Shown here: one piece after another, positions 2,345-24,589 of the stretch
Position numbering within the stretch: position 1 is the first letter of the stretch
Layout of the letters: the number at the start of each line of letters is the position of its first letter
Assembly: GCA_963854565.1 (NCBI GenBank)
Contig: CAWKZT010000001.1
Span: 1 to 35,982 of the forward strand
DNA: 35,982 nucleotides
From: Acidimicrobiia bacterium
GTDB lineage: Bacteria; Actinomycetota; Acidimicrobiia; Acidimicrobiales; JAHEJN01
Direction of reading: 5' to 3'
Notes under the pieces: generated by a model
Database searches by the model: none
What the model was told of the DNA's origin: nothing
The model's input: the letters and a program-made list of their open reading frames with translations, nothing else
Translations under genes and position numbers: made by a program

Positions 2345-3502
2345 ATGACTGAAATTCACGGAACTGTTGTCCCCGGATGGGAAAGTGCCAGCGAAGCGTT
2401 CGCAGCTAATTTCGAGAAGGATCTTGAACTCGGGGCATCGTTCTACATGACCCACCAGGGCAAGCCCGTGGTCGATATTTGGGCCGGCGACGCTGATCCA
2501 CACGGAACGCCGTGGGCCGAGGACACCATGGTCAACGTCTATTCGACGACGAAGACTATGACGTTCATTGCGATCATGATGTTGGTCGATCGTGGTCAGC
2601 TTGATGTGCACGAAAAGGTGGCGACGTACTGGCCCGAGTTTGCCCAGAACGGCAAAGAGAACGTCACCATTGCTCAAGTGATGAGTCACCGGGCCGGTAT
2701 TCCTGGCTTTGACCCGAGTATCAGGACCGAAGACCTCTACGACTGGGATGCCGTAGTCGCCCAACTGGCGGGTCAGACGCCCTGGCTCGAGCCTGGGGGC
2801 GATTCGGCGTATCACGCCGTTACCCAGGGCTTCTTGCTGGGCGAGATTGTTCGCCGCATTGATGGACGCTCGTTTGGCACGTTCTTTCGCGAAGAGATTG
2901 CCGGTCCGCTGGGGGCCGATTTCCATGTCGGCTTTGGCCCAGAACACGACGCGAAATGTGGTGAGTTAATCCCGCCCGAGATTGATATGTCCGAGGCAGC
3001 GTTTGCTGCTGCTGGCATGCCGGCAGATTCGCTTGCGGCCCGAACCATGACGAGCGTCCCAATCACGGCACGCGAACCACAGACACGGGCGTGGCGTGCG
3101 GCGGAAATCCCCGCGGCCGGTGGATTTGGCAATGCTCGTTCGGTTGGTCGAATTCACAGCGCCTTGGCCTGTGGTGGTTCGGTCGATGGGGTCACGTTGA
3201 TGTCGCCGGAAACACTCGAGATGATCACCGAAACCCAGTCCCATGGAACCGATGGGGTCCTTCTCTTGGATATGCACTTTGGTTTAGGGTTCGGCCTCAC
3301 ATCGGAGACGGTGCCGTTGCCCAACAACCGCACCATTTATTGGGGTGGCTACGGCGGATCGTTGGCCGTCATTGACCTGGAGAACCAACTGACGTTCACC
3401 TATGTCATGAACCGGATGGACGCTGGCCTTGCGGCCGACGAACGAGGTATGTCGTTGGTCCTTGCTGGCTACCTGGCAGCCATGACCGCCGCGGTGGGTT
3501 GA
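2345..3502 (+). CDS. serine hydrolase, beta-lactamase/esterase (class C-like) family
   Basis: S-x-x-K motif (YSTTKTM) near the N-terminus, with overall length and pattern typical of the EstB/AmpC-like family. AAGGAG RBS at 2334..2339. Confidence 0.85.
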   Translation: MTEIHGTVVPGWESASEAFAANFEKDLELGASFYMTHQGKPVVDIWAGDADPHGTPWAEDTMVNVYSTTKTMTFIAIMMLVDRGQLDVHEKVATYWPEFAQNGKENVTIAQVMSHRAGIPGFDPSIRTEDLYDWDAVVAQLAGQTPWLEPGGDSAYHAVTQGFLLGEIVRRIDGRSFGTFFREEIAGPLGADFHVGFGPEHDAKCGELIPPEIDMSEAAFAAAGMPADSLAARTMTSVPITAREPQTRAWRAAEIPAAGGFGNARSVGRIHSALACGGSVDGVTLMSPETLEMITETQSHGTDGVLLLDMHFGLGFGLTSETVPLPNNRTIYWGGYGGSLAVIDLENQLTFTYVMNRMDAGLAADERGMSLVLAGYLAAMTAAVG

Positions 3503-3515
3503 AGCCGAGCCAGAG

Positions 3516-5078
3516 CTAATTGATGCCCTTCTCGAACTGTTCCCAGTAGGGCTCACGAAGTTTGAATTTCTGCAGCTTCCCAGTTGCCGTGCGGGCTAGT
3601 TCGTCGCGGAACTCAACCGAAGTTGGGCATTTGTAATGCGCCATTTCGTCCCGGCAATATTTTATGAGATCAGCCTCGGTTACATCCGCTGATGGATCGA
3701 CAACGACGAGTGCTTTAACGGTTTCCCCCCACTTCTCATCCGGTACGCCAATGACGGCGACCTCATTGATCGCGGGGTGAGAAAAGAGTCGGTCCTCAAC
3801 CTCAATCGACGACACGTTTTCGCCTCCTGAGATGATGACATCCTTTTTACGGTCCTCAATGTGGACGTAGCTGTCCTCGTCGATGGTGCCGCCATCACCC
3901 GTATGGAACCAGCCATCGCGTAACGCTTTGGCCGATTCTTCAGGCTGGGCCCAGTAGCTCTTAAGGACCACATTGCTTTGCGCACAAATCTCGCCATCGG
4001 GATTTACCCGCATTTTCACACCTATGGCTGGGGCCCCAGCACGACCTAATTTCTTGGCCCGGTCACCAGGAGTGAGGTCGTCCCACTCGGCCCGGCCACG
4101 GCTCATGGTGAGTAGCGGGGCGGTTTCGGTAAGGCCATAAATCTGGATGAATTCCCAACCCAGTTCGGTTTCTACTCGTTCGATGATGATGGTCGGTGGC
4201 GGTGCTCCAGCCACGATGATCCGGACTTTGTCGCGGCCAGGCACCGGACCATCCCATTCGACAGCGGCATCGAGAATTGCGGTGACGATTGCGGGCGCGG
4301 CGCACATGAACGTCACGCCATGTTCTTCGACCCGACGTAAAATTTCAGGGCCATCGACTTTGCGGAGCACAATCTGGGGGACACCAAGACCCGTTGTTGC
4401 ATAGGGCATGCCCCAACCGTTGCAGTGAAACATTGGCAACGTATGCAGGTACACGTCGCGGTCGCTGATCCCGGCGTGCAAGCTGAATACGGTCGCATTT
4501 ATCCACAGATTACGATGCGTCAGCTCGACACCCTTAGGCCGAGCCGTGGTGCCGCTGGTGTAGTTGATCGTGGCGGTGGCGTTCTCGTCGGCATCCCACT
4601 CGGTGGGTTCGACACCATGACGCAGCAGCGCATCAAACTCGGGTCCCATCATGAAGCTGTGGCTCACCGGCAGGCCCTCGGCAAGTTCAGCCATTTCGGG
4701 GTCGTACAAAACCACGTCGGCACCAGAATGTTCGATGATGTATTCGACCTCGGAGCGTGACAAGCGGAAGTTGATAGGCACGGCGACGCGCCCCCAGGCA
4801 CTAGCGCCCATCAGCACGAGCAATAGTCGAGAAGCATTCTGGGAAAGGACCGCGACCCGCCCCCCGAACGGAACACCTAATTCTTCCAGCCCGGCGGCCA
4901 AAGCCTTGGACTGTGTGTAGAACTCGCCATAGGTGAGCGTTGGCACGGGGTCGGCCGGCTGATCGGGCTCGTCAAAGATGGCCGGCCGATCGCCGTAGAC
5001 AATTGCCGCCCGTTCAAGCTGGTCGCGAATTGTCAGTGGTACTTCCATGGGTCCCCCGGATCGGTTAGTGCCTGTCAT
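3516..5078 (-). CDS. acyl-CoA synthetase (AMP-dependent synthetase/ligase)
   Basis: AMP-binding motif YTSGTTARPKG and the GYGLTE-like motif IYGLTET, with a C-terminal TGKLQKFKLR. An alternative start is the ATG at 5048 (MEVPLTIRD), which has GGGGGA upstream. Confidence 0.9.
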   Translation of the reverse strand: MTGTNRSGGPMEVPLTIRDQLERAAIVYGDRPAIFDEPDQPADPVPTLTYGEFYTQSKALAAGLEELGVPFGGRVAVLSQNASRLLLVLMGASAWGRVAVPINFRLSRSEVEYIIEHSGADVVLYDPEMAELAEGLPVSHSFMMGPEFDALLRHGVEPTEWDADENATATINYTSGTTARPKGVELTHRNLWINATVFSLHAGISDRDVYLHTLPMFHCNGWGMPYATTGLGVPQIVLRKVDGPEILRRVEEHGVTFMCAAPAIVTAILDAAVEWDGPVPGRDKVRIIVAGAPPPTIIIERVETELGWEFIQIYGLTETAPLLTMSRGRAEWDDLTPGDRAKKLGRAGAPAIGVKMRVNPDGEICAQSNVVLKSYWAQPEESAKALRDGWFHTGDGGTIDEDSYVHIEDRKKDVIISGGENVSSIEVEDRLFSHPAINEVAVIGVPDEKWGETVKALVVVDPSADVTEADLIKYCRDEMAHYKCPTSVEFRDELARTATGKLQKFKLREPYWEQFEKGIN

Positions 5079-5119
5079 TGTTGCTCACATATTCGTTGTA
5101 TGCGAGTTCGGGACCGCCG

Positions 5120-6016
5120 TTAAGAAAGACTGCGACCGGTACGAGCTTGTTTTTCTCGACGGGCAACGCCAGCCGCGGCAAGTTCGGCCTGGTTTTCGTC
5201 GGTGACAGGCAGGAATCGGTCACGCCAGCCGTCGTCATCGGCATCCCATACCTGGGGCGACATCACCGTGGTGCGTGGCTCCCAGGCCTGGCCCATAAGG
5301 GTGAGTGCTTGGTCGACGATTTCGGTTTGACCTTTGGTATCGCCGGGTTTGCCCGTGGGATTGCCAAGGGGAAAGTCGACAAACAGGAAACGAGCTACAC
5401 CGCATTCTTCAACGATGTCGCGGGCTGACCCAATGATCACCGTTGGGATTCCCTCGGTTTCAAGGTGACGGGAAACCAGGCTCACGGCCTGGTGACATAC
5501 CGGTCAGAACGGCACCAAGATTGCAATGTCGACATGGTCTTGTGCCATCCATTTAGCGATGGCGGGAGCATCGATCTGTGCCGTATGACGCTGGCTGTAC
5601 ACGGTCGGGGTGCCGTAGAAGCGCGGGGAAATCGAACCTAAGCGCCGGTCGTCGATGGCATCTTGGAGCGCCCGCCAAGGAAGGAACGATTCCGTGTCGT
5701 TGGTATGTGTCTCGTCCTTGGCCCAGGACAGCTTGTCGGCCGCCAGCAGTTCCACTGCTGAAAGTGGTGCTGCGTATGCCTGATCATGATCGGTAACGTA
5801 GGGAACGGTGTCTGGGTCGGGAAAATACCCGGTCGTGACCACGCCAACCCGGCACTCGCTCAAGGGCTTAGTAAGCGATGCGAAAGGCGCGTCAGCAAAG
5901 GCAGCCCATTCGTAAGAGCGGTCGTAGCCTTGTGCCGCGTAGTACTCGCGCGACTTGTCGATGTAGCTTACGAATCCGCGATGGCTGCGTCGGGTGGGGG
6001 TGGGCCCCTGCGTCAT
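5120..6016 (-). CDS. GrdB-family (glycine/sarcosine/betaine reductase component B-like) protein with in-frame TGA at 5504..5506; candidate selenoprotein
   Basis: Track ORFs 5504..6016 and 5120..5485 are in the same frame, with only one TGA between them. The read-through gives ...DIAILVPF-U-PVCHQAVSLVSRHLETEGIPTVIIG...FPLGNPTGKP, matching the U/C-x-x-C redox motif and the following GIPTV segment of the GrdB/PrdB family as I recall it. The N-terminus YIDKSREYYAAQGYDRSYEW is typical of the short non-clostridial GrdB-like family. The start overlaps the upstream ABM stop (ATGA). Confidence 0.65.
5475..5493 (-). promoter_or_regulatory. candidate bacterial SECIS hairpin
   Basis: mRNA reads UGA-CCGGUAUGUC-ACCAGGC-CGUGA-GCCUGGU, a perfect 7-bp stem that starts 10 nt after the UGA. 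The 5-nt apical loop contains GU at +22/+23 counted from the U of UGA. Confidence 0.5.
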
Positions 6017-6318
6017 GAAAGTGGCGTTTCGCCCGTGACTTCGTACATGGTTATGGTCTGGTAGATGGCGCCTAATGTGGCGATTACCGTGAAAAATTCG
6101 TTGATGTGCGGCATTTTCATATGGGGGCCGAGGTTGTCGGCGCTATCCCACATCTCGAATAAGCGGACGAGCCCGTCGTCATGAGTATCACGAGTAAAGA
6201 CGTACTCGAGGCAACCATCCTCGGCCCGGGTGGCATCCATTAATGGGGTGGTTGCCGCCATAAACGCGTCACGCTTTGAGGGATCGAGTTTTATTTTTCC
6301 AGAGATAATGACAGCCAT
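6013..6318 (-). CDS. antibiotic-biosynthesis-monooxygenase (ABM) domain protein / putative quinol monooxygenase
   Basis: About 100 aa, with a ferredoxin-like ABM pattern (CLEYVFTRD...LFEMWDSADNLGPHMKMPH). Its stop overlaps the next gene's start by 4 nt. Confidence 0.8.
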   Translation of the reverse strand: MAVIISGKIKLDPSKRDAFMAATTPLMDATRAEDGCLEYVFTRDTHDDGLVRLFEMWDSADNLGPHMKMPHINEFFTVIATLGAIYQTITMYEVTGETPLS

Positions 6319-6326
6319 AGTGACTC

Positions 6327-7907
6327 CTAATTGACCGCGCGATCGCGGCCTTCCCAGTACGGGGCTCGTAGGTCTTTCTTAAGTACCTTACCGGTGGGGT
6401 TGCGGGGGATCGAATCAACGAAGTCGACCGAGCTGGGGCACTTGAATCGGGCCAACAATGACCGGCAGTGTTCGATGATTTCGGTTGCCTCGGGCGAGGT
6501 GCCGGGCGCACGAACGACTATGGCCTTGGGTGTCTCGCCCCATCTGTCGGACGGCACACCGATGACGGCGCAGTCGGCCACGCCCTCGTGTTTCATGAGG
6601 GCATTCTCGATCTCGGCGGGGTACACATTTTCGCCACCGGAGATAATCATGTCTTTTATGCGGTCGTGCAAGTAGAGGTAACCGTCGTCGAGGTAGCCAG
6701 CGTCACCACTTCGGAACCAGTTTCCCCCCGGGAGAGCTTCTTGTGATGCGTCAGGAAGTTTCCAGTAGCCGACCATATTGGCTGGAGACTTGACCCAAAT
6801 CTCGCCCACTTCGCCGTCGGGTAGGGCCGGTGGATTGGACATATCGATGCCGTCGATGCTGTCGGGGTCGACGATGCGAAGTTCAATACCAGGCATGGCC
6901 TTTCCGGCGGCGCGGAGCAACTTGGCCCGCTTTTCTGGTTCGGCCCGGTGGTCATCGGGCGGCAACATCGTGACTACTCCCGTGGTCTCTGTTAGGCCAT
7001 ACACCTGTATGAAATCGCAATCAAACATTTCCATTGATCCGATGAGTACTTCTTCGGTGATCGGGGAAGCGCCATATGCCATAAGTTTCATGGACGAGAG
7101 ATCAATGCCTTCGAGCGGCATGAGTTGCAAGAACTGCAGTACGGCAGGCACCAGGAAAGCGTGGGTGATCTTGTGGTCATTTATGAACTGCAACAAGGCC
7201 CCAGGGTCCGCTTCACGGAGCAGTACGGTTTCGGCGCCCATCGCCATCCCGAACAATGCCCAACCGCTACCACCGATATGAAAGAGTGGCATCGCGGCCA
7301 TGTTGACACTGTCATATTCGATACCCCATGAGCCAGCAACACGATGCAAAGCGGTCATGGCGTTATGGCTAAGCAGGGCCCCTTTGGGGTTACCTGTCGT
7401 GCCGGAGGTATAGAGCTGGAACGCCACCTCGTCGGGATCGGGCCGCACCACGGGAACATCGCCGGGGGTGGCCTCAAGCCAGGCTTCGTAGGACGGATCA
7501 TCGCCAGACCCGCCAATCACTACGATGCGATTTGTGTGGGCCAGGTCGCCTCGAAAGTCAGCGAGGTGAGGGCCGAATTCGTGGTGGATTGCCACAACTT
7601 TGGCCTGGGCGTCGTTGAGGATATAGGCCATCTCAGGAGCAGCAAGACGCCAGTTGACGGCTACCAAAACCGCACCGAGACGGGCGCACCCAAAAAGTAA
7701 CTCAAAGTACTCAAACCCGTTCTTATCGATGAGGCCGACCCGGTCTCCGGGACCTACACCCGAGGCGGCGAGTGAGGAGGCAACGCTGGCCGCGCGAGCA
7801 TCCAACTCGGTCCAGGTGAGCGAAACGTCATCCAACCGAAGGGCTACCGCGTCGGGTTGGTGTGTTTCGTTTTCTGTGACGATGTCGCCTACTACTTTGA
7901 TTGCCAT
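6327..7907 (-). CDS. acyl-CoA synthetase (long-chain-fatty-acid-CoA ligase-like)
   Basis: Motifs YTSGTTGNPKG, VYGLTETTG, SGDAGYLDDGYLYLHDRIKDMIISGGENVYPAEIE and PRNPTGKVLKKDLR. Confidence 0.9.
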   Translation of the reverse strand: MAIKVVGDIVTENETHQPDAVALRLDDVSLTWTELDARAASVASSLAASGVGPGDRVGLIDKNGFEYFELLFGCARLGAVLVAVNWRLAAPEMAYILNDAQAKVVAIHHEFGPHLADFRGDLAHTNRIVVIGGSGDDPSYEAWLEATPGDVPVVRPDPDEVAFQLYTSGTTGNPKGALLSHNAMTALHRVAGSWGIEYDSVNMAAMPLFHIGGSGWALFGMAMGAETVLLREADPGALLQFINDHKITHAFLVPAVLQFLQLMPLEGIDLSSMKLMAYGASPITEEVLIGSMEMFDCDFIQVYGLTETTGVVTMLPPDDHRAEPEKRAKLLRAAGKAMPGIELRIVDPDSIDGIDMSNPPALPDGEVGEIWVKSPANMVGYWKLPDASQEALPGGNWFRSGDAGYLDDGYLYLHDRIKDMIISGGENVYPAEIENALMKHEGVADCAVIGVPSDRWGETPKAIVVRAPGTSPEATEIIEHCRSLLARFKCPSSVDFVDSIPRNPTGKVLKKDLRAPYWEGRDRAVN

Positions 7908-8059
7908 GACTGCCCCCTGGTTTGTTTAAGAGTTAGCGCGTTTTGCCGCACCGAATAAACAGAGTGATGGTAGATGATGGGCGCGGTGAGCGTAGTAGTT
8001 GGCTATTTCGTCGTCGTGTAGTTCGCGGTCCTTGGGTTGGCTCTGGCACACTGGGAGGT

Positions 8060-8500
8060 ATGGGACAAACCGCTGCTGCACCTTTGATTAAGGCTGCCCG
8101 TGTGGTTAAGGCGGCCGGTGGTGTCGTTCTTAAGGGCAAGAAGACTCCCAAGGTACTGGTTGTGCATCGGCCGAAGTATGACGACTGGTCGCTACCAAAG
8201 GGCAAACTCAACCGGGGGGAGTCATGGGAGGCGGCGGCGGTACGCGAAGTGCTCGAAGAAACCAATGTTCAGGCCCAGATTGTCGACACCCTTAATCCGA
8301 CCAGCTACTGGATCAAAAATCGCCCCAAAGTGGTGGTTTGGTACCTGATGGAGGTTGTGAAAGAACCCCGCTTTAAACCCAATAGCGAGGTAGATCAAGT
8401 GGTCTGGGTGCCACTAGACGAGGCGCGCAAGTTGCTTACTTACCGGGACGAGCGGACGGTCGTGAAGCAGGTTCTCAAACCCAAAAAGTCGAAACGGTAG
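8060..8500 (+). CDS. NUDIX hydrolase
   Basis: Nudix box GKLNRGESWEAAAVREVLEETNV. I prefer the ATG at 8060, preceded by GGGAGG at 8053..8058, over the track start at 7943. Confidence 0.85.
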   Translation: MGQTAAAPLIKAARVVKAAGGVVLKGKKTPKVLVVHRPKYDDWSLPKGKLNRGESWEAAAVREVLEETNVQAQIVDTLNPTSYWIKNRPKVVVWYLMEVVKEPRFKPNSEVDQVVWVPLDEARKLLTYRDERTVVKQVLKPKKSKR

Positions 8501-8541
8501 ATACCCGTAGCGGCCCGCGCCTGAAAGAACGACGCTGAATT

Positions 8542-9834
8542 TTAGGTGATCTCGCTGAGGTCGGGGCGGAAGGTGCGCCATGCACCGTCGGGATCGCGTT
8601 GTGTGACGAAGCCCTGATTCTTGTGTCGATTGTGCTTGCCACAAAGTGGCGCCCCGTTGTCGGGGTTCGTTCTACCGCCTTCGCCATAAGGGTGGAGATG
8701 GTCACCCTGGCAGCGACTGCTGACTAAGTAGCACCCAGGCCAGATGCACAATGGGGACTGCAGGTTGATGGCATGGCGAGCCAGACCCGTAAACAGTCGG
8801 GCGTGGGAAAGATCGATCACGGCGCCTTTGGCATCGACAACGACGCGTCGAAAACTGGCGGTAAGTGAATTGATGAATGCCTCGGATGGGTCGAGCAGAA
8901 CGCCGTCGATGGTTTCGCAGCGAAATGTTTTGGGATCAAAGATCGGGCGTTGGTTTGCACCTGCGGCAACAAGCATGGCCTCGTAGGTGTCTGACGACCA
9001 GACGATGTTGTGGACGAAGCCGACGGTAGAGGTGCCGGTGAGATTGTTCGCGGCAAGGGCGAAAATGTGGTCGACCGCATCGGCACGACGTTGGGAATTG
9101 GTGCGGGCAAGGTGTTCTTTGCGAGTGTCAATCCCATGAATCATCTGCGCGGAATCCCAGTCGGCCTTGAACTCGATGTCGATGAACCGGTCGAATATCT
9201 CGTTGATGGCCGCACCTTGCAAGGCACTAAAAGAACCGTCGAGATCCCAGGACAGGTCGAATGCGTTCTGGGTCAGATTGGCCCGGCGGTTGTTGTGATT
9301 GCGTTCGGCGTCTTGGTCGGCGCCGTCTTGGTCGACTAGGCGCTCCCACGTGGTGATGGCATTCTCAAAGTCGAGAAACGAAGCACCTTTGGCAATCTGG
9401 GCAAATGCAGCGTCGCGTTCGGTGAGCAGGTAGCGGATACGTCTATTGGCGTGAACCTTGCCGAGAAGAGCGACTTGATCCATGCCGATTTGGCCAGCCT
9501 CAAAGGCAGCAGCGATTTGAGGCATCGCGTCGAGCACTTGGCGGCACCGATCACGACGCAAAGAAGTGGCCGCCGACAGCTTGGCATTGTGGCGCATCAT
9601 CACTTTGGCCGAATGGTGCCCATCGGAGAAGTGGAGCCGTTGGTTGTCAATTGAACGCAATAATTCGATGCCAGCGGCACTTAGGCGACGCTGCTGTTTC
9701 TCGAGAGTGCGGATCCAGGCCACCGCGTCGCGGGCGCTAGCGGGAGCGATGCCGCGGGCAAAAAGCTGGTCGATGCCTGTTGAGATGAGGTCAAGTGCCT
9801 CATTGGCCTGGGAATTTTGTACCGCCATTTCCAT
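8542..9834 (-). CDS. DUF222 / HNH endonuclease domain protein (REP13E12-like family)
   Basis: The N-terminal region is DUF222-like. The C-terminal HNH motif is CIWPGCYLVSSRCQGDHLHPYGEGGRTNPDNGAPLCGKHNRHKN. Confidence 0.85.
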   Translation of the reverse strand: MEMAVQNSQANEALDLISTGIDQLFARGIAPASARDAVAWIRTLEKQQRRLSAAGIELLRSIDNQRLHFSDGHHSAKVMMRHNAKLSAATSLRRDRCRQVLDAMPQIAAAFEAGQIGMDQVALLGKVHANRRIRYLLTERDAAFAQIAKGASFLDFENAITTWERLVDQDGADQDAERNHNNRRANLTQNAFDLSWDLDGSFSALQGAAINEIFDRFIDIEFKADWDSAQMIHGIDTRKEHLARTNSQRRADAVDHIFALAANNLTGTSTVGFVHNIVWSSDTYEAMLVAAGANQRPIFDPKTFRCETIDGVLLDPSEAFINSLTASFRRVVVDAKGAVIDLSHARLFTGLARHAINLQSPLCIWPGCYLVSSRCQGDHLHPYGEGGRTNPDNGAPLCGKHNRHKNQGFVTQRDPDGAWRTFRPDLSEIT

Positions 9835-10060
9835 AATCGAACACTAGTACCAAAAAGGGCAGAAATCAATGTATTTATGCAGGTCAGACATGTTTTTTTG
9901 AATGGCTGGGGTGACCTGTTAGACCTTCGAACCACTAGCACGGTCACCCCTACGGGGATAGCGAATTTGGCTGCAGAGGCCTTGCCGGTAGCGTTGAGAG
10001 GCGCCCGCACGACCACTTGGTTATGTGGGCATCAAATCCGCACAATTTTGAGGAGTCAGT

Positions 10061-10990
10061 GTGAGCAAGTTGAATGAAGGACGCGTAGCAATTGTTACCG
10101 GTGCCGGTCGGGGGATTGGTCGCGAACACGCCCTCGCCCTCGCAGCATCAGGAGCCAAAGTCGTTGTAAATGACCTCGGAGCCGACATGGACGGCGGTGG
10201 CGGCGACGCTACCCCAGCCCAGGAAACCGTCAATGACATCATCGCCATGGGGGGCGAAGCCGTCGTGAACGGTGGCAACGTCGCCAGCTTCGACGACGCC
10301 GGGGCCATGGTTGCTCAGGCAATAGACACCTTCGGTGGTCTCGACATTGTTATCAACAACGCAGGAATCCTGCGTGACCGCATGCTCTTCTCGATGACCG
10401 AATCGGACTGGGATGCCGTTATAGCGGTACACCTCAAGGGCACCTTTGGCCCCAGCCACCATGCTTCCAAGTACTGGCGCGAACGGGCCAAGGCCGGCGA
10501 GACCAACGATGCTCGCATCATTAACACCTCGTCACCATCGGGCATTTACGGCAACATCGGCCAGACCAACTACGGCGCCGCCAAGGCGGGCATAGCTGCT
10601 TTCTCGATGATCGCTGCCATGGAACTCGTGCGTTACGGCGTAACCGTTAACTGCATTGCCCCCGCTGCCCTTACCCGCATGACCGAGAACCTTCCCGGCC
10701 TGCTCGGATCAGAGGACGCAGAGAACTCTATGGGCCCACGTTGGATCGCCAATGTTGCCACCTGGCTTGCTAGCCCCGCCGCTGCGGGCGTGACCGGTCG
10801 CGTATTTGACGTCGTCGGCGATCGCATCGGAATCGCCGAAAGCTGGAGCCTCGGTCCTACCGCTACCCAGGGCGACACCCCCGAGTCGATCGGCGACCTA
10901 ATGCCAGAGCTTATGGCTAACGCTTCCTTGAACTCCGACATGTCTGGTCGGCCAACCGAAGGCCCCGGCCGTCCCAGCAAGACCATTTAG
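10061..10990 (+). CDS. short-chain dehydrogenase/reductase (SDR) family oxidoreductase
   Basis: GTG start preceded by GAGGAG. Cofactor motif TGAGRGIGR, NNAG, and catalytic Y-x3-K (YGAAKAG). Confidence 0.9.
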   Translation: MSKLNEGRVAIVTGAGRGIGREHALALAASGAKVVVNDLGADMDGGGGDATPAQETVNDIIAMGGEAVVNGGNVASFDDAGAMVAQAIDTFGGLDIVINNAGILRDRMLFSMTESDWDAVIAVHLKGTFGPSHHASKYWRERAKAGETNDARIINTSSPSGIYGNIGQTNYGAAKAGIAAFSMIAAMELVRYGVTVNCIAPAALTRMTENLPGLLGSEDAENSMGPRWIANVATWLASPAAAGVTGRVFDVVGDRIGIAESWSLGPTATQGDTPESIGDLMPELMANASLNSDMSGRPTEGPGRPSKTI

Positions 10991-11001
10991 TAGTAACCGT
11001 T

Positions 11002-11070
11002 TGAGGCCTTAGGCCTCATCAAAGTCAGATGGCGCATGGTGAGCAATTACCATGCGCCATCTGCTGTTTT
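11002..11070. terminator. double hairpin between convergent genes; rho-independent terminator for the SDR gene, probably bidirectional
   Basis: First hairpin TGAGGCC-TTA-GGCCTCA (11002..11018). Second is a perfect 14-bp stem AGATGGCGCATGGT / ACCATGCGCCATCT with an 8-nt loop (11027..11062), followed by GCTGTTTT. Confidence 0.7.
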
Positions 11071-11106
11071 GGGAGATGCTGTAGTCCTGGGGAAGGATTC
11101 AGCCAC

Positions 11107-12483
11107 CTAGCTCTCCCAAAGTTTGCCTTCGGGGAAGAACCCGGCAAAGGCAAACCAGAACTCATTGCGATGCGGGGCGATCGTGAGAGTTTCGCCCTCG
11201 TTCTCGCCGGCGATCCCGGCGCCAAGCAGGTTCCAGGTAGTACCTGTCTCGGCATCGGTGAATGTGTCGTCGCCGTTGGCAGTGAAGGTAAGTGATTGGT
11301 CCTCGAATTCGGCGAGGTAGGCAATAGCACTACCGATCTGCTCACTGTTGGCGATGGATTGTTCATCAAGAGCGTCGTTCGTGGCACCACCCCAGAAGAT
11401 CGCGATCGAAAGATCCCCAACCTGGTCGGCGATCAGACCGGTCTCACTTACTGCCGAAAATGGGTACGCCGTGACAGCGTCGCCGTCGATGACCGAAACA
11501 ACCCGGGCCATTGGTGGCAGGCGATCGTCGAGTTCTTCGGGGAAGAATGCTGGGATTGGCCCTGCGCCGGAGCTGTAACCCGTGTAAGGGTTCGTGCCGT
11601 AGTTGGTGCCGAACCCGGTCTCGCGGGAAAGCGACAAGCCGTCGGGATGGGTGGCCGAGAAGTCGCCAAAGGAGACAATCGAGGTGGGGACAAGGGTAAG
11701 TTCGGTGCCGGCGTACTCACCGATTACTCCGGTACCGCTGATTTGCTGCCACAGAGTCTCCGATTGTCGGTCCCACATGACCAGGTCGCTCTTTCGGAGC
11801 AACCCCGATACCCCAAATCGAAGACGTTGACCGTCGACCCGGGCGTCGAAGGCAAGTGCCGTGTTGCAGAGCGGGCAGAAAGTGATCGCTACGGGAACAT
11901 TGCCGAATCGATCGTTGACGATTTCGTGCCGGGTCATGATTGACAGCGGGTAGAAACGCACATCGCCGTCCAGTGAGACAAGCGCCCCGGGTTCGGTGGG
12001 CTGTAGCCATTCGCTGGCCGCGGTCACCGATTCAAACAATGGTCGATCGATGGGAGGAATCCCGTCGCGGGGGTCTTCGCCCCGCAGCCCGGCGCGCAAT
12101 TCGCCGATGTCGATCGTTGTGCGACTCCAATCCGTCGTCCAGAGACCGCTTATGCTGGCGGCGGTGGGGTGGAGCAGGTCGCGGGGGTTGCCGGTAAGGA
12201 TCTGCACGTCCTCGTCGTTTGGTTCGGCGCTGGCCGATACGTCGTAAGGCAGATCGACGGCGGTGGGATCAAAGAGTGGGGCTTCCTGGGACTCTCCGGC
12301 CGTTTTTGATATTACGTCATCGTCAGTCTGTTCGGGATCGGCGTCCTCGGTTGCTCCCTCACTAGCTACTACATCGCGGTCAGTAGTTGTGGCTTGTGGG
12401 GTGCTACTGCCTCCACACGCCGCAGCGATGAGTGCAAATAGCAGAATCGCTGCCAGATTTTGTGTTATTCGTCGAGGCGTCAT
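11107..12483 (-). CDS. DUF3179 domain lipoprotein
   Basis: Signal peptide with LIAAAC lipobox. Carries DUF3179-type motifs RFYPLSIMTRHEIVND, FCPLCNT and GVSGLLRKSDLVMWDRQSETLWQQ. Confidence 0.8.
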   Translation of the reverse strand: MTPRRITQNLAAILLFALIAAACGGSSTPQATTTDRDVVASEGATEDADPEQTDDDVISKTAGESQEAPLFDPTAVDLPYDVSASAEPNDEDVQILTGNPRDLLHPTAASISGLWTTDWSRTTIDIGELRAGLRGEDPRDGIPPIDRPLFESVTAASEWLQPTEPGALVSLDGDVRFYPLSIMTRHEIVNDRFGNVPVAITFCPLCNTALAFDARVDGQRLRFGVSGLLRKSDLVMWDRQSETLWQQISGTGVIGEYAGTELTLVPTSIVSFGDFSATHPDGLSLSRETGFGTNYGTNPYTGYSSGAGPIPAFFPEELDDRLPPMARVVSVIDGDAVTAYPFSAVSETGLIADQVGDLSIAIFWGGATNDALDEQSIANSEQIGSAIAYLAEFEDQSLTFTANGDDTFTDAETGTTWNLLGAGIAGENEGETLTIAPHRNEFWFAFAGFFPEGKLWES

Positions 12484-12592
12484 GACAAAGCAAACCCTCT
12501 ATCAGGCGAATCTATTCGCGAATCTCGAACCGGGAGGCGAAAAGCGCACTAGATCGAAGAAACCAGCCCGAGTCTTCGCGGGGAGTGTTGTG

Positions 12593-15124
12593 TTAGCGGT
12601 CGCCTTGGCGGGTGATGCTTGTCAGTTCGACTACTGCCTCGCCGGCGTCGATGGAGGCATCGATGTCGATAGCCACGACGAGACGCCATTCGTTCCACTC
12701 TTCGGGATCGACGAGGGCTTGATGCAATGTTGTTTCGTTCACAAAGTCGACGTGACTAGCGCTTCGGGCATCGGCGTCGATGGTGAGGGCATCGTGGGTG
12801 TCCCAGTACGGCGTCATGGCCTCGGCGATGTCATCGGAACGCCAGTCGCCACCCGCGAGTTCGGCCGCTCGCACATTGTTTCGGCGACTTAAGGCCTCGA
12901 CGATGGCCCATGTGGCGTTGCGCACCATGATGGCGAACGCTCGTTTATTGGTAGTTACATTGGAGCGGGTCACTTCGATTGGGGTGGCTAGCTCGGAGGG
13001 ATCATCCTCGGGGTTCTGGAGCCTGGACCACTCGTCGATCAGCGACGAGTCGGTCTGGCGAACCACTTCACCCAACCATTCGGTGAGGTCGATTACCTCT
13101 TCGGTCTGACACTCCTCGGGTACGGTCTGACGCAGCGCCCGGTAGGCATCGGTGAGGTAGCGCAACAAGACGCCCTCGGAGCGCTTGAGCCCGTAGTGGT
13201 TGATGTACTCCTTGAAGGTCATCGACTGCTCGTACATGTCGCGCACGATGGCCTTGGGGGCCACGTTGTCGCTGTGGGTCCACGGATGATGAACACGGAA
13301 TAGGTCGAAGGAGTGATACAGAAACTCCGACAACGGTTTCGGGTACGTGAGATCGGCGATTTTGTCCATGCGTTCGTCGTATTCGATGCCCTCGCGCTTC
13401 ATCTCGGCCAGGGCATCTTGGATGACCTTGTTACGTTGCTCGGCCAGAATGACTCGGGGGTTTTCCAGGATTGCTTCTATTACCGAAACCACATCGAGGG
13501 CGTAGGTGGGGTATTCCTGGTCAAGCGCCTCGATGGCCTCAAGGGCATAGAGCGACAGTGGCTGGTTAAGCGCAAACGAGTCCTGCAGGTCGAGGGTGAC
13601 CCGTACGTGTCGGTCCAACTCGTCGGGTTCATCGAGAAACTCCAGGACCTCAGCCTCAACCAGTGAGCGGAAGATCGAAATGGCACGCTTCTGGTGGCCA
13701 CGGCGACGCTTGTGAGTCTCGTGGGTTTCACGCAACAGTTCCTTCATGGACCTACAACCATCGCCGGGACGGTCGAGCATGTTAAGCATCATCTGGTGGG
13801 TGACCTGGAAACTCGAGGTGAGAGATTCGGGTTCGCCATTGATGAGTTTATTGAACATGTTCTCGTCCCAATGCGAATAGCCGCGCTCGGGTGCTTTTTT
13901 CTTAACCTGCTTCTTCTTTCCCCCCGACGCTGACTTCTCATCTTGGATGCGATTCTCGACCCAATGGGCCGGGGCCTGGGCCCACACGGTGCCACGATCG
14001 TCGTACCCACGGCGTCCGGCGCGTCCGGCGATTTGTTGAAATTCGCGTATCTGCAGCGGCCTAACCGAGGTGCCGTCGTACTTGCATAGTTGCGTGAACA
14101 ACACCGATCGGATCGGGACATTTACGCCGACACCCAAGGTGTCGGTGCCACAGATGAGCTTGAGGAGTCCGGCTTGGGCCAACTTCTCGACCAGGAGGCG
14201 GTACTTGGGTAACAGACCAGCGTGGTGGAGGCCGATGCCGTGAGTGAGGAATCGGCGCATCTCTTTCCCGATGGGCGTATCGAACCGGAATCCGCCAATG
14301 AGTTCGTTGATTTGCTGTTTTTCTTCCTTGGTCAACACATTGACCGACAACAACGACTGGGCCTGCTCGGTGGCCTCGCGTTGGGTAAAATGCACGATGT
14401 AGATGGGCGCCTTGCCGCTATCGAGCAACTTTTCGATCGAGTGCACCAGGCGCAACGTGGAGTAGTCAAAATCGAGGGGCACGGGCCGTTCGGTTGATTT
14501 GACCAATACCGTTTCGCGTCCGGTGCGTTCCTTGAGTTCGGTTTCGAATCGTTCGGTATCGCCGAGGGTGGCTGACATCAACAAGAACTGCGACTGAGGG
14601 AGCGTGAGTAATGGTGTTTGCCAAGCCCAACCTCGTTGCGGGTCGCCGTAGTAATGAAACTCGTCGGCAATGACCACATCAACCGGGGTTTGGTCGCCCT
14701 CGCGTAGGGCCCAGTTCGCCAGGATTTCGGCGGTGCAACAGATGATGGGGGCGTCTTTGTTTACCGAGGCATCACCGGTGACCATTCCTACGCGCTCTGT
14801 GCCGAAGTCGCGACATAACGCAAAGAATTTCTCGCTGACTAAGGCTTTGATCGGAGCGGTGTACACGCTTCTCTTGCCATTTGCTAAAGCATAGAAATGC
14901 GCGGCCGTCGCAACCAGCGATTTGCCCGATCCCGTTGGTGTATTGAGGATCACGTTACTGTCGGCGAAGACCTCCAGGATGGCCTCTTCCTGAGCTGGAT
15001 AGAGATCGAGACCTAGTTCTGTGGCGTAGGCGAAGAAAGCGTCGAGTAAGTCGTCAGGGTTGTCCGACGCGGGCATATGTCGAATAAGTAGTGGTTCGGA
15101 TTGCACAACGCCAGACACGCTCAC
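12593..15124 (-). CDS. superfamily-2 DEAD/DEAH-box helicase with C-terminal DUF3516-like region
   Basis: Walker A NTPTGSGKS, motif II DEFH, motif III SAT, motif VI QIAGRAGRRG, and a long C-terminal extension. The track start is a GTG at 15124; an alternative ATG lies at 15076. Confidence 0.9.
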   Translation of the reverse strand: MSVSGVVQSEPLLIRHMPASDNPDDLLDAFFAYATELGLDLYPAQEEAILEVFADSNVILNTPTGSGKSLVATAAHFYALANGKRSVYTAPIKALVSEKFFALCRDFGTERVGMVTGDASVNKDAPIICCTAEILANWALREGDQTPVDVVIADEFHYYGDPQRGWAWQTPLLTLPQSQFLLMSATLGDTERFETELKERTGRETVLVKSTERPVPLDFDYSTLRLVHSIEKLLDSGKAPIYIVHFTQREATEQAQSLLSVNVLTKEEKQQINELIGGFRFDTPIGKEMRRFLTHGIGLHHAGLLPKYRLLVEKLAQAGLLKLICGTDTLGVGVNVPIRSVLFTQLCKYDGTSVRPLQIREFQQIAGRAGRRGYDDRGTVWAQAPAHWVENRIQDEKSASGGKKKQVKKKAPERGYSHWDENMFNKLINGEPESLTSSFQVTHQMMLNMLDRPGDGCRSMKELLRETHETHKRRRGHQKRAISIFRSLVEAEVLEFLDEPDELDRHVRVTLDLQDSFALNQPLSLYALEAIEALDQEYPTYALDVVSVIEAILENPRVILAEQRNKVIQDALAEMKREGIEYDERMDKIADLTYPKPLSEFLYHSFDLFRVHHPWTHSDNVAPKAIVRDMYEQSMTFKEYINHYGLKRSEGVLLRYLTDAYRALRQTVPEECQTEEVIDLTEWLGEVVRQTDSSLIDEWSRLQNPEDDPSELATPIEVTRSNVTTNKRAFAIMVRNATWAIVEALSRRNNVRAAELAGGDWRSDDIAEAMTPYWDTHDALTIDADARSASHVDFVNETTLHQALVDPEEWNEWRLVVAIDIDASIDAGEAVVELTSITRQGDR

Positions 15125-22299: not shown

Positions 22300-22525
22300 A
22301 GCTGATCCTTCGGAGTTCGGGACGAGTCGTTGAATGTTTCTAAATTGTAGGGGCTTGTGCAGCGTCGGCAATATCGAGTTGGGCGGTGGCGGTCTGAAGC
22401 ACCTGGGCTATTGGGGTGCGACTCCTCCCGTGGATACGGACCCGCATCTTGTTACAAACACTCTTCGTGTCAATTGACCGGGTACTTGGCAAAACCGTAG
22501 CCCGTGAATGTGGCACGCTGGGCGC

Positions 22526-24589
22526 ATGGACGTGCATTTGGTCGATGGGACCTACGAGCTATTTCGGTATCACTACAACCCTGCAAACAAAGATGATCGT
22601 CATGGTGCGACCAAAGGGGTGCTTTCGAGCATGCTCGACTTGGTGCGCGGAGGGGCGACACATGTTGGTATTGCGACCGATCATGTCATTACGTCTTTCC
22701 GCAACGACATGTACGACGATTACAAAGATGGCTCGGACATCGATCCGCAACTGCATGCGCAGTTCCCCGAGATTGAAGATGCACTGCGGGCGGCTGGCTT
22801 CACCGTCTTCCCAATGGTGGAGTATGAAGCCGACGACGGGATGGCTGCTGCTGCGGTGGCAGCCGAGAAAGATCCCGCGGTCGACAAAGTCATCATCTGC
22901 ACCCCGGACAAAGATTTGGGCCAGTGTGTTCGAGCCGACGGGCGCATTGTGCAGTACGACCGACGCAAGCAACTGATGATCGATCAAGCGGGCATTATTG
23001 AGAAATTCGGGGTACCTCCCGAGTCAATCCCGGACTACCTCGGGCTCGTTGGCGATACCGCCGATGGTTTTCCCGGATTACCGGGCTGGGGGGCCAAATC
23101 AACGGCAACGCTGTTAGCCAAGTATGGGCACATTCAGAACATCCCGCCGTCGTCCGATGACTGGCAGGTAAAGGTCCGCGGCGCCGTGAAGTTGGCCGTG
23201 ACTTTGCGCGAGAACTACGACGACGCATTGCTGTTCCGTAAGATCGCCACGGTCATCACCGACATCGACCTCTTCGGGTCCGTCGATGAGATGCGCTGGG
23301 ATGGTCCGACCCCAGCATTTGAACAGATTGCACGCGACCTCGGGCAGGTGGGGCTGTGGAAGCGAGCCGTCGAGTTGCATAAGAATCGTCGAGTCACAAA
23401 AGAGCCGATGACTGTTTCGCTTCGGCCCGTATCGCCCGCCGATCTCGGAGCGCTTTTGCCCATGAATAACGCGGCAGTTCCGGCCGTGAGCCATCTGGAA
23501 ATGCCCGCACTTGAGGCGTTGGTTGACCAGGCCGAATGGTTTACAGTCGTTGAGTCTGAAGGCGAGATAGCGGGTTTCTTGATTGGTATGCATGGTCCGG
23601 GTTTGCCCTACGCCAGTGTCAATTACCGTGAGTTCTGTCGGCGATTTCCTGACGGATTTTGGTACGTCGACCGCATTGTGGTTTCGCCGGACCACCGCAA
23701 CAAGCAGATCGGCGCCACGCTGTACGACGCGTTTGCGAAGTTTGGTCGAGCCAGTTTGGATGGGTCCGCGATAGGTGGTCCGCGTGTCTGCGCCGAGGTA
23801 AATGTTCGTCCGCGCAACGATGGTTCGCTGCGGTTCCACCGCCGTTTCGGGTTCCGCCCCATTGGTGAGTTGGACTATTCCGACGACGGCCAGCGGGTGA
23901 GTCTGTTGGCCTATGACCTCACCGATGGTGCCGCTCCGCTTGATCGGCATCACGTTGTTGACGTGACCGCCAAGCACGATCCCGACCTGGCGCAACGGTT
24001 AGAGTTTGTCTTCGATCTGGATCGTTTGAAGACGGTGCAACGCATGTCGCTCATTACCGATGGCAGTCGCCGCGAAAACACCGCCGAGCATTCGTGGCAT
24101 ATTGCCATGGTGGCTATTGCGTGTGCGCCCACTGCCGCTGAACCAATCAGTATTGATCGGGTGATCGAGATGCTGCTGGTACACGACATTGTTGAGGCTG
24201 ACGCGGGTGATGTCTATATCTACGATGAGCTCACCAGCGATGTCGCGGCAGCAAGTAAGTCTCGGCTCGAAACCGAAGCGGCGAGGCGGATCTTTGGTCT
24301 GTTACCCAATGGCGAGGGTGACCGACTCCGTGAACTTTGGGAAGAGTACGAAGGTCAGACCAGCGCCGATGCACGGTTTGCCAAGGCTTGTGACCGAATT
24401 CAGCCGTTCTTGTTGAATGCTGCCAACGGTGGAAAATCGTGGACAGAGAACAACATCACCGCTTCGCAGGTGCGTCACGCGATGAGCGAGGTCAAGGTCG
24501 GTGCACCAAGATTGGTCGAGATGGTCGAAAGACTCATAGCCGAGCAAGTAGCCATCGGCCACTTACCCGAAGGATCGCCCCCGACGTAA
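22526..24589 (+). CDS. three-domain fusion protein: 5'-3' exonuclease/FEN (PIN-like) + GNAT acetyltransferase + HD-domain phosphohydrolase
   Basis: N-terminal domain has VEYEADDGMAAAA, TPDKDLGQC and GLVGDTADGFPGLPGWGAKSTATLL (H3TH). The middle domain is GNAT, with motif A VDRIVVSPDHRNKQIGATLYDAF and LRFHRRFGF. The C-terminal domain has RRENTAEHSWHIAMVA and LVHDIVEADAGD, an HD of the YfbR-like type. It is one uninterrupted ORF. Confidence 0.8.
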   Translation: MDVHLVDGTYELFRYHYNPANKDDRHGATKGVLSSMLDLVRGGATHVGIATDHVITSFRNDMYDDYKDGSDIDPQLHAQFPEIEDALRAAGFTVFPMVEYEADDGMAAAAVAAEKDPAVDKVIICTPDKDLGQCVRADGRIVQYDRRKQLMIDQAGIIEKFGVPPESIPDYLGLVGDTADGFPGLPGWGAKSTATLLAKYGHIQNIPPSSDDWQVKVRGAVKLAVTLRENYDDALLFRKIATVITDIDLFGSVDEMRWDGPTPAFEQIARDLGQVGLWKRAVELHKNRRVTKEPMTVSLRPVSPADLGALLPMNNAAVPAVSHLEMPALEALVDQAEWFTVVESEGEIAGFLIGMHGPGLPYASVNYREFCRRFPDGFWYVDRIVVSPDHRNKQIGATLYDAFAKFGRASLDGSAIGGPRVCAEVNVRPRNDGSLRFHRRFGFRPIGELDYSDDGQRVSLLAYDLTDGAAPLDRHHVVDVTAKHDPDLAQRLEFVFDLDRLKTVQRMSLITDGSRRENTAEHSWHIAMVAIACAPTAAEPISIDRVIEMLLVHDIVEADAGDVYIYDELTSDVAAASKSRLETEAARRIFGLLPNGEGDRLRELWEEYEGQTSADARFAKACDRIQPFLLNAANGGKSWTENNITASQVRHAMSEVKVGAPRLVEMVERLIAEQVAIGHLPEGSPPT

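Follow-up and report, generated by a model that had tools for sequence, protein, structure and literature searches.

The subject of this analysis is a cluster of four genes within positions 1 to 35,982 of contig CAWKZT010000001.1, from the Acidimicrobiia bacterium assembly GCA_963854565.1; the whole stretch of 35,982 nucleotides is called the window below. According to the list of open reading frames (ORFs) and their translations, the four genes are tightly packed on the minus strand at 3516-7907 and encode, in this order, a first acyl-coenzyme A (CoA) ligase (ligase 1), an ABM-domain protein, a predicted selenoprotein related to the D-proline reductase subunit PrdB, and a second acyl-CoA ligase (ligase 2). 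The features of the cluster are the following.

6327-7907, minus strand: ligase 1, an AMP-forming acyl-CoA ligase (ANL superfamily) of 526 amino acids, first in the cluster
6013-6318, minus strand: ABM-domain protein (Pfam ABM) of 101 amino acids
5120-6016, minus strand: predicted PrdB-like selenoprotein of 298 residues with the motif U171-P-V-C174, in a 299-codon frame whose sole interruption is TGA
5504-5506, minus strand: predicted UGA selenocysteine codon
5475-5493, minus strand: hairpin of the selenocysteine insertion sequence (SECIS) type, with a 7-bp stem and the 5-nucleotide loop CGUGA, beginning 11 nucleotides past the UGA, predicted by folding
3516-5078, minus strand: ligase 2, a second AMP-forming acyl-CoA ligase, of 520 amino acids (from ATG 5078) or 510 amino acids (from ATG 5048)

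Ligase 1 and the ABM gene are separated by 8 nucleotides (6319-6326), the stop codon of the ABM gene and the start codon of the selenoprotein gene share a 4-nucleotide ATGA overlap (6013-6016), and the selenoprotein gene and ligase 2 are 41 nucleotides apart (5079-5119), or 71 nucleotides if ligase 2 starts at ATG 5048. These spacings agree with an earlier note on this DNA, which had described four co-directional, operon-like genes. We could not find promoter-like or terminator-like sites inside the cluster beyond the expectation from shuffled sequence, and Rfam gave no match in 3300-8600. The ABM and selenoprotein genes are translationally coupled by their overlap, and all four genes are probably cotranscribed. 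Both the gene order and the 4-nucleotide overlap, as ATGA or GTGA, are kept in a relative (L001) whose selenoprotein is 79% identical to that of the window.

Selenocysteine at the in-frame UGA codon

In full-length homologues (about 295 amino acids) the position of codon 5504-5506 is taken by the invariant first Cys of the motif CPVCHQ, and the flanking sequence of the window protein reads ILVPF-U-PVCHQAVSLVSR. TGA was found at the homologous codon in all 82 related loci, namely two close metagenomic relatives and 80 genomic loci, the latter being the best 80 from a set of bacterial genomes with one genome per species. The hosts of these 80 loci are marine Acidimicrobiia, Alpha- and Gammaproteobacteria, SAR324 and Dehalococcoidia. 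Complete Acidimicrobiia genomes with the gene include Ca. Poriferisodalis chromosomes. The codon is also present in four more contigs of the same population (L089-L092), which are identical or nearly identical in sequence. Comparison of the frame past the TGA with the 79% relative gave pN 0.072 and pS 0.69 (nonsynonymous and synonymous differences per site), for an omega of about 0.04; the codons that precede the TGA are under no stronger constraint. By these comparisons the downstream frame is under strong purifying selection.

The predicted hairpin has a folding energy of -16.4 kcal/mol (z = -2.25). Across 74 distinct sequences 92.7% of the alignment cells were paired, with compensatory changes in three of the seven pairs, and the window hairpin has G-C where most of the other sequences have A-U. 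When the 3' partner was slid by 1-3 columns as a control, only 16-35% were paired. All seven pairs are kept in 53 of the 82 selenocysteine (Sec) forms, and 3-6 of the seven in the small sample of five distinct loci with a Cys form. The conservation of the hairpin is therefore partly coding-driven, since Cys forms keep these pairs, although the Sec forms still do better. Some Cys-form relatives from Bradyrhizobium and others (L093:5472, L095:5508 and L097:5496) retain 5-6 of the seven pairs past the Cys codon, and the distant fusion forms described below keep 3-4; these remnants are either a relic of a recent switch from Sec to Cys or the result of coding constraint.

Because the UGA is conserved, is followed by a covarying hairpin of SECIS type and precedes a frame under purifying selection, we conclude from the sequence comparisons that UGA 5504-5506 is read through as selenocysteine, giving a 298-residue protein with the predicted motif U-P-V-C. 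Every public gene call nevertheless splits the gene, into a fragment of 170 amino acids and another of 121 or 126, and an exhaustive profile search, with 2,419 representatives, returned many fragments of the family that end at, or begin just past, the Sec position. These records, together with the lack of visible Sec machinery in the window, would suit a true stop codon and either a pseudogene or two small genes (170 and 121 amino acids). This is hardly credible given that the TGA recurs in 82 of 82 loci across several phyla, in alignment with an invariant Cys, that the hairpin covaries, that the downstream omega is so low, and that the same motif occurs in published selenoprotein sets. We regard the reading as a pseudogene or as two genes as effectively refuted on these grounds. 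Other in-frame TGA candidates in the window look like shadows of genes on the opposite strand, as judged from two that were compared with the ORF list.

Relation to PrdB, GrdB and the marine selenoproteomes

The best NCBIfam match of the selenoprotein is D-proline reductase PrdB (TIGR04483), with 77.8 bits against an equivalog cut-off of 300 and with residues 44-244 aligned to model positions 19-221 of 238. Pfam GRDB (PF07355) gave 16.5 bits against a gathering cut-off of 22, over model positions 201-345 of 347, while TIGR01918 gave 28.3 bits against 65.45 and TIGR01917 gave 27.6 bits against 602, over model positions 275-421 of 431. The protein is homologous both to PrdB and to the C-terminal half of GrdB. 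Since the matches to GrdB, GrdF and GrdH span only the C-terminal part of those 430-residue proteins, it is better described as a PrdB-like protein of PrdB size than as a shortened GrdB. The earlier note had called it a GrdB-like (seleno)protein, and a Sec-containing relative of GrdB and PrdB is what we find, although the closer of the two is PrdB. The motif agrees with this placement: in UPVCHQAVS the UxxC is present and the third Cys of the GrdB motif is absent, PrdB being characterised by UxxC and GrdB by UxxCxxC (PMC13188914).

The family itself is not new, a point that the earlier note missed. Two papers on marine selenoproteomes place "Proline reductase PrdB, UxxC" with the ocean selenoproteins of highest abundance (PMC1088965; PMC2398784). 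The first counted 42 Sec against 1 Cys sequence in the Sargasso Sea (Zhang, Fomenko & Gladyshev 2005, PMC1088965), where marine "PrdB" ranks third among the selenoproteins, and the second counted 235 Sec against 110 Cys sequences in the Global Ocean Sampling data (Zhang & Gladyshev 2008, PMC2398784). The supplement of the 2005 paper contains the sequence ...LLVPLuPVCHQTVGLVARHLESNGIPTV...FTDFPLGNPTG..., and "uPVCHQ" occurs in it 14 times, inside sequences that match the C-terminal half of the window protein. With the same UxxC, the same marine origin and the same excess of Sec over Cys, the window protein belongs almost certainly to this marine "PrdB" family. Both papers catalogue the family, and we found in them no gene context, partners or function. 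Our literature search found no paper on the partners or function of the marine PrdB-like family, and the ligase-ABM operon, the pairing with an alpha/beta hydrolase and the ligase fusions described below did not turn up in it.

The window protein resembles PrdB of Clostridium sticklandii and C. difficile in its near-full-length homology, its size and its predicted Sec in UxxC, and differs in having no PrdA pyruvoyl proprotein, PrdC or other prd genes nearby. With GrdB, GrdF and GrdH (PF07355) it shares the character of a Sec enzyme and the C-terminal homology; it has no counterpart of the roughly 200 N-terminal residues of GrdB, and GrdA, GrdC, GrdD and GrdE are not present. Homologues of PrdA, GrdA, GrdC and GrdE are absent from the 36-kb window, as the earlier note had stated, and for want of these partners the cluster matches none of the known glycine, sarcosine, betaine or proline reductase systems. 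A PrdA-, GrdE-, GrdA- or GrdC-like neighbour was likewise found at none of the 80 genomic loci, in censuses of the -1 and +1 genes and of recurrent clusters. The names given to homologues in the sources suggest otherwise: Cys forms are labelled "D-proline reductase PrdB" or "glycine reductase", though they score under the curated cut-offs and have no partner subunits. Such names, and the real homology to TIGR04483 and PF07355, are what speaks for a B subunit of a canonical D-proline or glycine/sarcosine/betaine reductase with its partners elsewhere in the genome. We consider this extremely improbable, as both scores lie far under the cut-offs, the motif is not UxxCxxC, and the partner genes are missing near all 80 loci. 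Moreover, the hosts of the family (marine Acidimicrobiia, Pseudomonadota, Bradyrhizobium) are mostly aerobes, unlike the Stickland-fermenting anaerobes that have the canonical enzymes. A canonical subunit was accordingly rejected on the sub-cut-off scores and the lack of partner genes nearby.

Another possibility is that the protein is a general thiol- or selenol-disulfide oxidoreductase, an antioxidant or redox buffer with no carbon-substrate chemistry, whose likeness to PrdB is one of fold only. The AlphaFold model of a 55%-identical Cys-form homologue (P0005; predicted local distance difference test score 89.8) has a Rossmann-like alpha/beta fold in which CxxC follows strand 170-174 and lies at the start of helix 178-193. 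A position between a strand and the start of a helix is the usual setting of a redox-active pair, and in this model the UxxC of the window protein would be placed in the same way, which is consistent with a general oxidoreductase. So are the placement of the family among thiol-dependent redox proteins in the ocean selenoproteome list (PMC2398784), the highly variable genomic contexts, and the glutathione peroxidase gene beside one of the fusion loci. However, a comparison of 42 diverse members shows about 37 invariant residues, many of which are distant from CxxC, including R183, D200, E203, R209 and D214-P-L-G218, which suggests a specific ligand site. The homology also spans almost the whole of the catalytic PrdB subunit, and the fusion to an adenylating enzyme and the operon pairing with a hydrolase point to small-molecule metabolism. 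We consider a purely redox role improbable.

Ligases, fusion proteins and genomic context

Ligase 1 matches Pfam AMP-binding with 275.9 bits and also AMP-binding_C, and it exceeds the cut-off of 476 bits for NCBIfam PRK06187, long-chain-fatty-acid--CoA ligase, with 544 bits. Ligase 2 matches the same two Pfam domains (AMP-binding, 222 bits) and reaches 450.7 bits with PRK06187, under the cut-off. They are distinct paralogues, only 33% identical and each passing the Pfam cut-offs, so that the two distinct AMP-forming ligases proposed earlier stand. Both have the full two-domain ANL architecture and retain the core motifs (SGTTGxPKG, YGxTE and the C-terminal catalytic Lys), which in ligase 1 read YTSGTTGNPKG, YGLTET and PTGK. 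The closest solved relatives of ligase 1 are FadD5, FadD13 and feruloyl-CoA synthetase; for both ligases the best solved matches, which include these three and the long-chain fatty acyl-CoA synthetase (LC-FACS) of T. thermophilus, have E-values of 1e-85 to 1e-66, from which the substrate specificity of the window ligases is not readable.

Ligase 2 has two candidate ATG codons 30 nucleotides apart, and public gene calls disagree between 510 and 520 amino acids. The start is more probably ATG 5048, giving 510 amino acids, because a GGGGG ribosome-binding site (5053-5057) is found only before this codon, because some public calls also give 510 amino acids, and because the 79% relative begins at an equivalent GTG. 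The ABM protein is a member of its family by Pfam PF03992 (51 bits against a gathering threshold of 23.1) and has no NCBIfam match. A search for its homologues in an index of 5.8 billion proteins returned two clusters only, both from the same lineage.

A connection between an ANL ligase and a PrdB-like protein is suggested by natural fusions. The exhaustive profile search identified proteins of 793-817 amino acids in which AMP-binding and AMP-binding_C are followed by a C-terminal Cys-form PrdB-like domain with the motif NCPVCHQ, and a follow-up search gave at least ten distinct clusters of such fusions at 90% identity, mutually 54-61% identical, in metagenome-assembled genomes of Pseudomonadota and Paracoccaceae. 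One fusion was checked on its contig and is a single ORF. Identity between the fused PrdB-like domain and the window selenoprotein is 34-41%. The fusions are a hint of functional coupling somewhere in the family and no proof for the operon in the window. Fusion loci and proteins include L083:363-2780, L088:2760-5213, P0124 and P0270-P0278. Near the fusion in L088, genes at 5289-13213 encode a glutathione peroxidase, a thiamine pyrophosphate enzyme, an aldehyde dehydrogenase and a DAO/FAO_M/GCV_T protein; the last, the domain set of dimethylglycine and sarcosine dehydrogenases, may hint at betaine or amine catabolism at this single locus.

Gene neighbourhoods were examined at the best 80 genomic loci, up to 8 kb on either side where the contig allowed. 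The arrangement of the window recurs only in the same population (L002 and L089-L092; 99% protein identity) and in the 79% relative, which also shares the NUDIX and DUF222/HNH flank. The earlier note had proposed to test whether ABM and AMP-ligase genes co-occur with the family; as a general rule they do not, and the ligase/ABM context is a lineage-specific variant within a selenoprotein family already catalogued. Across the family the commonest partner is an alpha/beta hydrolase (Abhydrolase_1), whose gene follows immediately downstream (+1) in the same orientation at 33 of 76 loci, every one in Acidimicrobiia. In 31 of 32 clustered pairs the gap is -4 to +86 nucleotides (-56 in the remaining one) while the other flanks vary, so that the selenoprotein and the hydrolase form a conserved two-gene module. 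Examples are L027:8896-9771, L044:8994-9974 and about 30 other loci. The window contains no homologue of this hydrolase.

Other contexts are diverse. An amidase is encoded upstream in 5-7 loci. In one clade of marine Acidimicrobiia the gene lies among those for a MaoC dehydratase, an acyl-CoA dehydrogenase, an acetyl-CoA hydrolase/transferase, a Zn-dehydrogenase and an enoyl-CoA hydratase. The Cys form in Bradyrhizobium adjoins an MFS transporter, another adjoins two peptide-type binding proteins and an FAD oxidase, and another comes directly after ABC permeases, with a dienelactone hydrolase on the opposite strand. The earlier suggestion of a CoA-activated or carboxylate substrate is made no more than plausible by the fusions and by the one clade with acyl-CoA enzymes, and no family-wide association supports it.

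The best reading of the cluster is a lineage-specific four-gene operon (ligase 1, ABM protein, selenoprotein, ligase 2) of an uncultured marine actinobacterium, in which a stand-alone Sec/Cys reductase would have been recruited to a carboxylate activated by the ligases. This reading as a whole, and with it a common pathway of ligases and selenoprotein, falls just short of what we would call probable. Several observations weigh against it. An ABM neighbour was found at none of the 80 loci by tblastn, nor by Pfam at -1 or +1. About 7 of the 80 have an AMP ligase within 8 kb, never in the arrangement of the window, and two loci, from Ilumatobacter, have it as the convergent +1 gene. By a rough estimate ligases are no more frequent near the selenoprotein gene than by chance, and given the abundance of ANL ligases in these genomes, adjacency alone is weak evidence. 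None of the 80 other Sec-form genomes has the ligase/ABM context, and 80 soil loci from the subfamily that includes the PrdB-like domain of the fusions have only housekeeping neighbours, with no association with a ligase, ABM protein or hydrolase, so that coupling to a ligase is not a property of the family. The commonest partner, as described above, is instead the hydrolase. As for the fusions, their ligase shares only 25-32% identity with the window ligases, and its nearest unfused relatives (Roseovarius, Hyphomicrobiaceae) are found in operons with TRAP transporters, IclR regulators and CoA-transferases that have no PrdB-like gene.

To the same side belong three results on the selenoprotein itself. 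Sequence searches with the single protein and with a profile gave no solved relative, Foldseek of the P0005 model against the PDB gave no related fold (best E = 0.011), and no gene for Sec insertion (selA, selB, selC or selD) and no tRNA-Sec was found within the 36-kb window, in which a tRNA scan found no tRNA of any kind. Expression has limits as well. Near-identical copies of the region occur in numerous seawater metagenomes of separate studies, whose sequencing runs are labelled simply as seawater or marine metagenome, and metatranscriptome contigs, which are of low depth, unstranded and possibly affected by DNA carry-over, cover 4932-5095, 5210-5385, 5814-6010, 5992-6172, 6061-6332 and 6178-6309. 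Among them 5992-6172 spans the junction between the ABM and selenoprotein genes, 6061-6332 includes the start of the ABM gene and the 8-nucleotide gap, 5210-5385 lies in the part past the TGA, and 4932-5095 covers the start of ligase 2. These contigs speak for expression and for the operon in a supportive manner only.

Perhaps, then, the juxtaposition is incidental. The selenoprotein would work as a self-contained reductase on a small solute that the cell imports, its substrate being freed by the usual helper hydrolase (an alpha/beta hydrolase, amidase or esterase), and the ligases and the ABM protein would belong to an unrelated metabolism of fatty or aromatic acids on a shared transcript. 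This explanation is a serious one, although we would stop short of calling it probable. It is consistent with the downstream hydrolase amid varying flanks, with the upstream amidase, with the transporters, dienelactone hydrolase and FAD oxidase beside the Cys forms, with the lack of ABM neighbours and of ligase enrichment, and with the soil relatives, whose gene stands alone among housekeeping genes. It accounts less well for the overlap of the ABM and selenoprotein genes, which is kept at 79% identity, for the recurrent ligase::PrdB-like fusions, in which both activities cooperate somewhere in the family, and for a window without the usual alpha/beta hydrolase partner.

The cluster is flanked by two genes on the opposite strand.

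2345-3502, plus strand: convergent serine esterase of beta-lactamase fold (family VIII, LipL-like), 385 amino acids; Pfam Beta-lactamase, 216.8 bits
7943-8500, plus strand: divergent NUDIX hydrolase; Pfam NUDIX, 77.3 bits

The esterase gene converges on the cluster with a gap of 13 nucleotides, as had been noted before, and is found in the same place in the population contigs. Its match to the NCBIfam LipL-type esterase (197.7 bits) is under the cut-off, and it is outside the transcript of the cluster because it lies on the opposite strand. The NUDIX gene shares its promoter region with ligase 1 and keeps this position in L001 and in L089-L092. Directly upstream of it, at 8542-9834 on the minus strand, is a DUF222/HNH endonuclease gene of the 13E12-repeat type that is common in Actinobacteria; at this place L001 has a 440-amino-acid gene with no Pfam match on record, and DUF222 is recorded there in L089-L092. 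The rest of the window is an ordinary actinobacterial chromosome, with ask-asd, a DUF3516 helicase, a thiolase and a carboxyltransferase. A gene at 22508-24589 on the plus strand (693 amino acids) encodes a 5'-3' exonuclease (N- and C-terminal domains), a GNAT acetyltransferase and an HD/YfbR-like 5'-deoxynucleotidase, an unusual three-part architecture.

Proposed chemistry and significance

If the ligases and the selenoprotein do act in one pathway, a mechanism can be proposed in which the selenoprotein would be a stand-alone Sec/Cys reductase with PrdB-type chemistry. Its selenolate would attack an electrophilic carbon alpha to an activated carboxyl group, Cys174 would resolve the Se-C adduct to give a Se-S bond, and a thioredoxin-type dithiol would reduce this bond again. 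These steps follow the established mechanism of proline and glycine reductases (PMC13188914; PMC10838667). The ANL ligases that flank the protein here and are fused to it elsewhere would activate the carboxylate of the substrate by adenylation or CoA thioesterification. Activation by a ligase is proposed because the pyruvoyl subunit (PrdA or GrdE) is absent nearby, and it would stand in for the pyruvoyl Schiff base of the canonical enzymes, since a thioester carbonyl could stabilise the enolate formed on Se-C cleavage. Candidate substrates are small acids with an alpha substituent, or osmolytes, that the cells would take from seawater. Enzymes of the GrdB family presumably attack the alpha carbon next to a carboxyl group and would accept different leaving groups, namely amines and fluoride, FarB of Cloacibacillus being a proposed fluoroacetate reductase of this family (PMC10838667). 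By analogy with these enzymes the particular chemistry of selenolate and ligase activation is conceivable, although we consider it unlikely in this exact form.

A still bolder and more doubtful proposal is that the orphan marine PrdB-like proteins may be a new class of reductase. In such a class ATP-dependent activation of a carboxylate by a flanking or fused ANL ligase would replace the pyruvoyl Schiff base and would let aerobic ocean bacteria break, by reduction, a C-N, C-S or C-halogen bond at the alpha carbon of a plentiful dissolved compound such as a betaine-type osmolyte.

For twenty years this family has been labelled "proline reductase", a function of anaerobic fermenters, although it has been found without the partner subunit that this function requires, and public gene calls systematically break its gene into two fragments. 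The ligase/ABM operon, the natural ligase fusions and the alpha/beta hydrolase partner are three concrete leads on what this highly abundant ocean selenoprotein does, and recombinant proteins would allow each of them to be tested. If the proposal of a new reductase class is true, a function would at last be assigned to a selenoprotein that is among the most abundant in the surface ocean.

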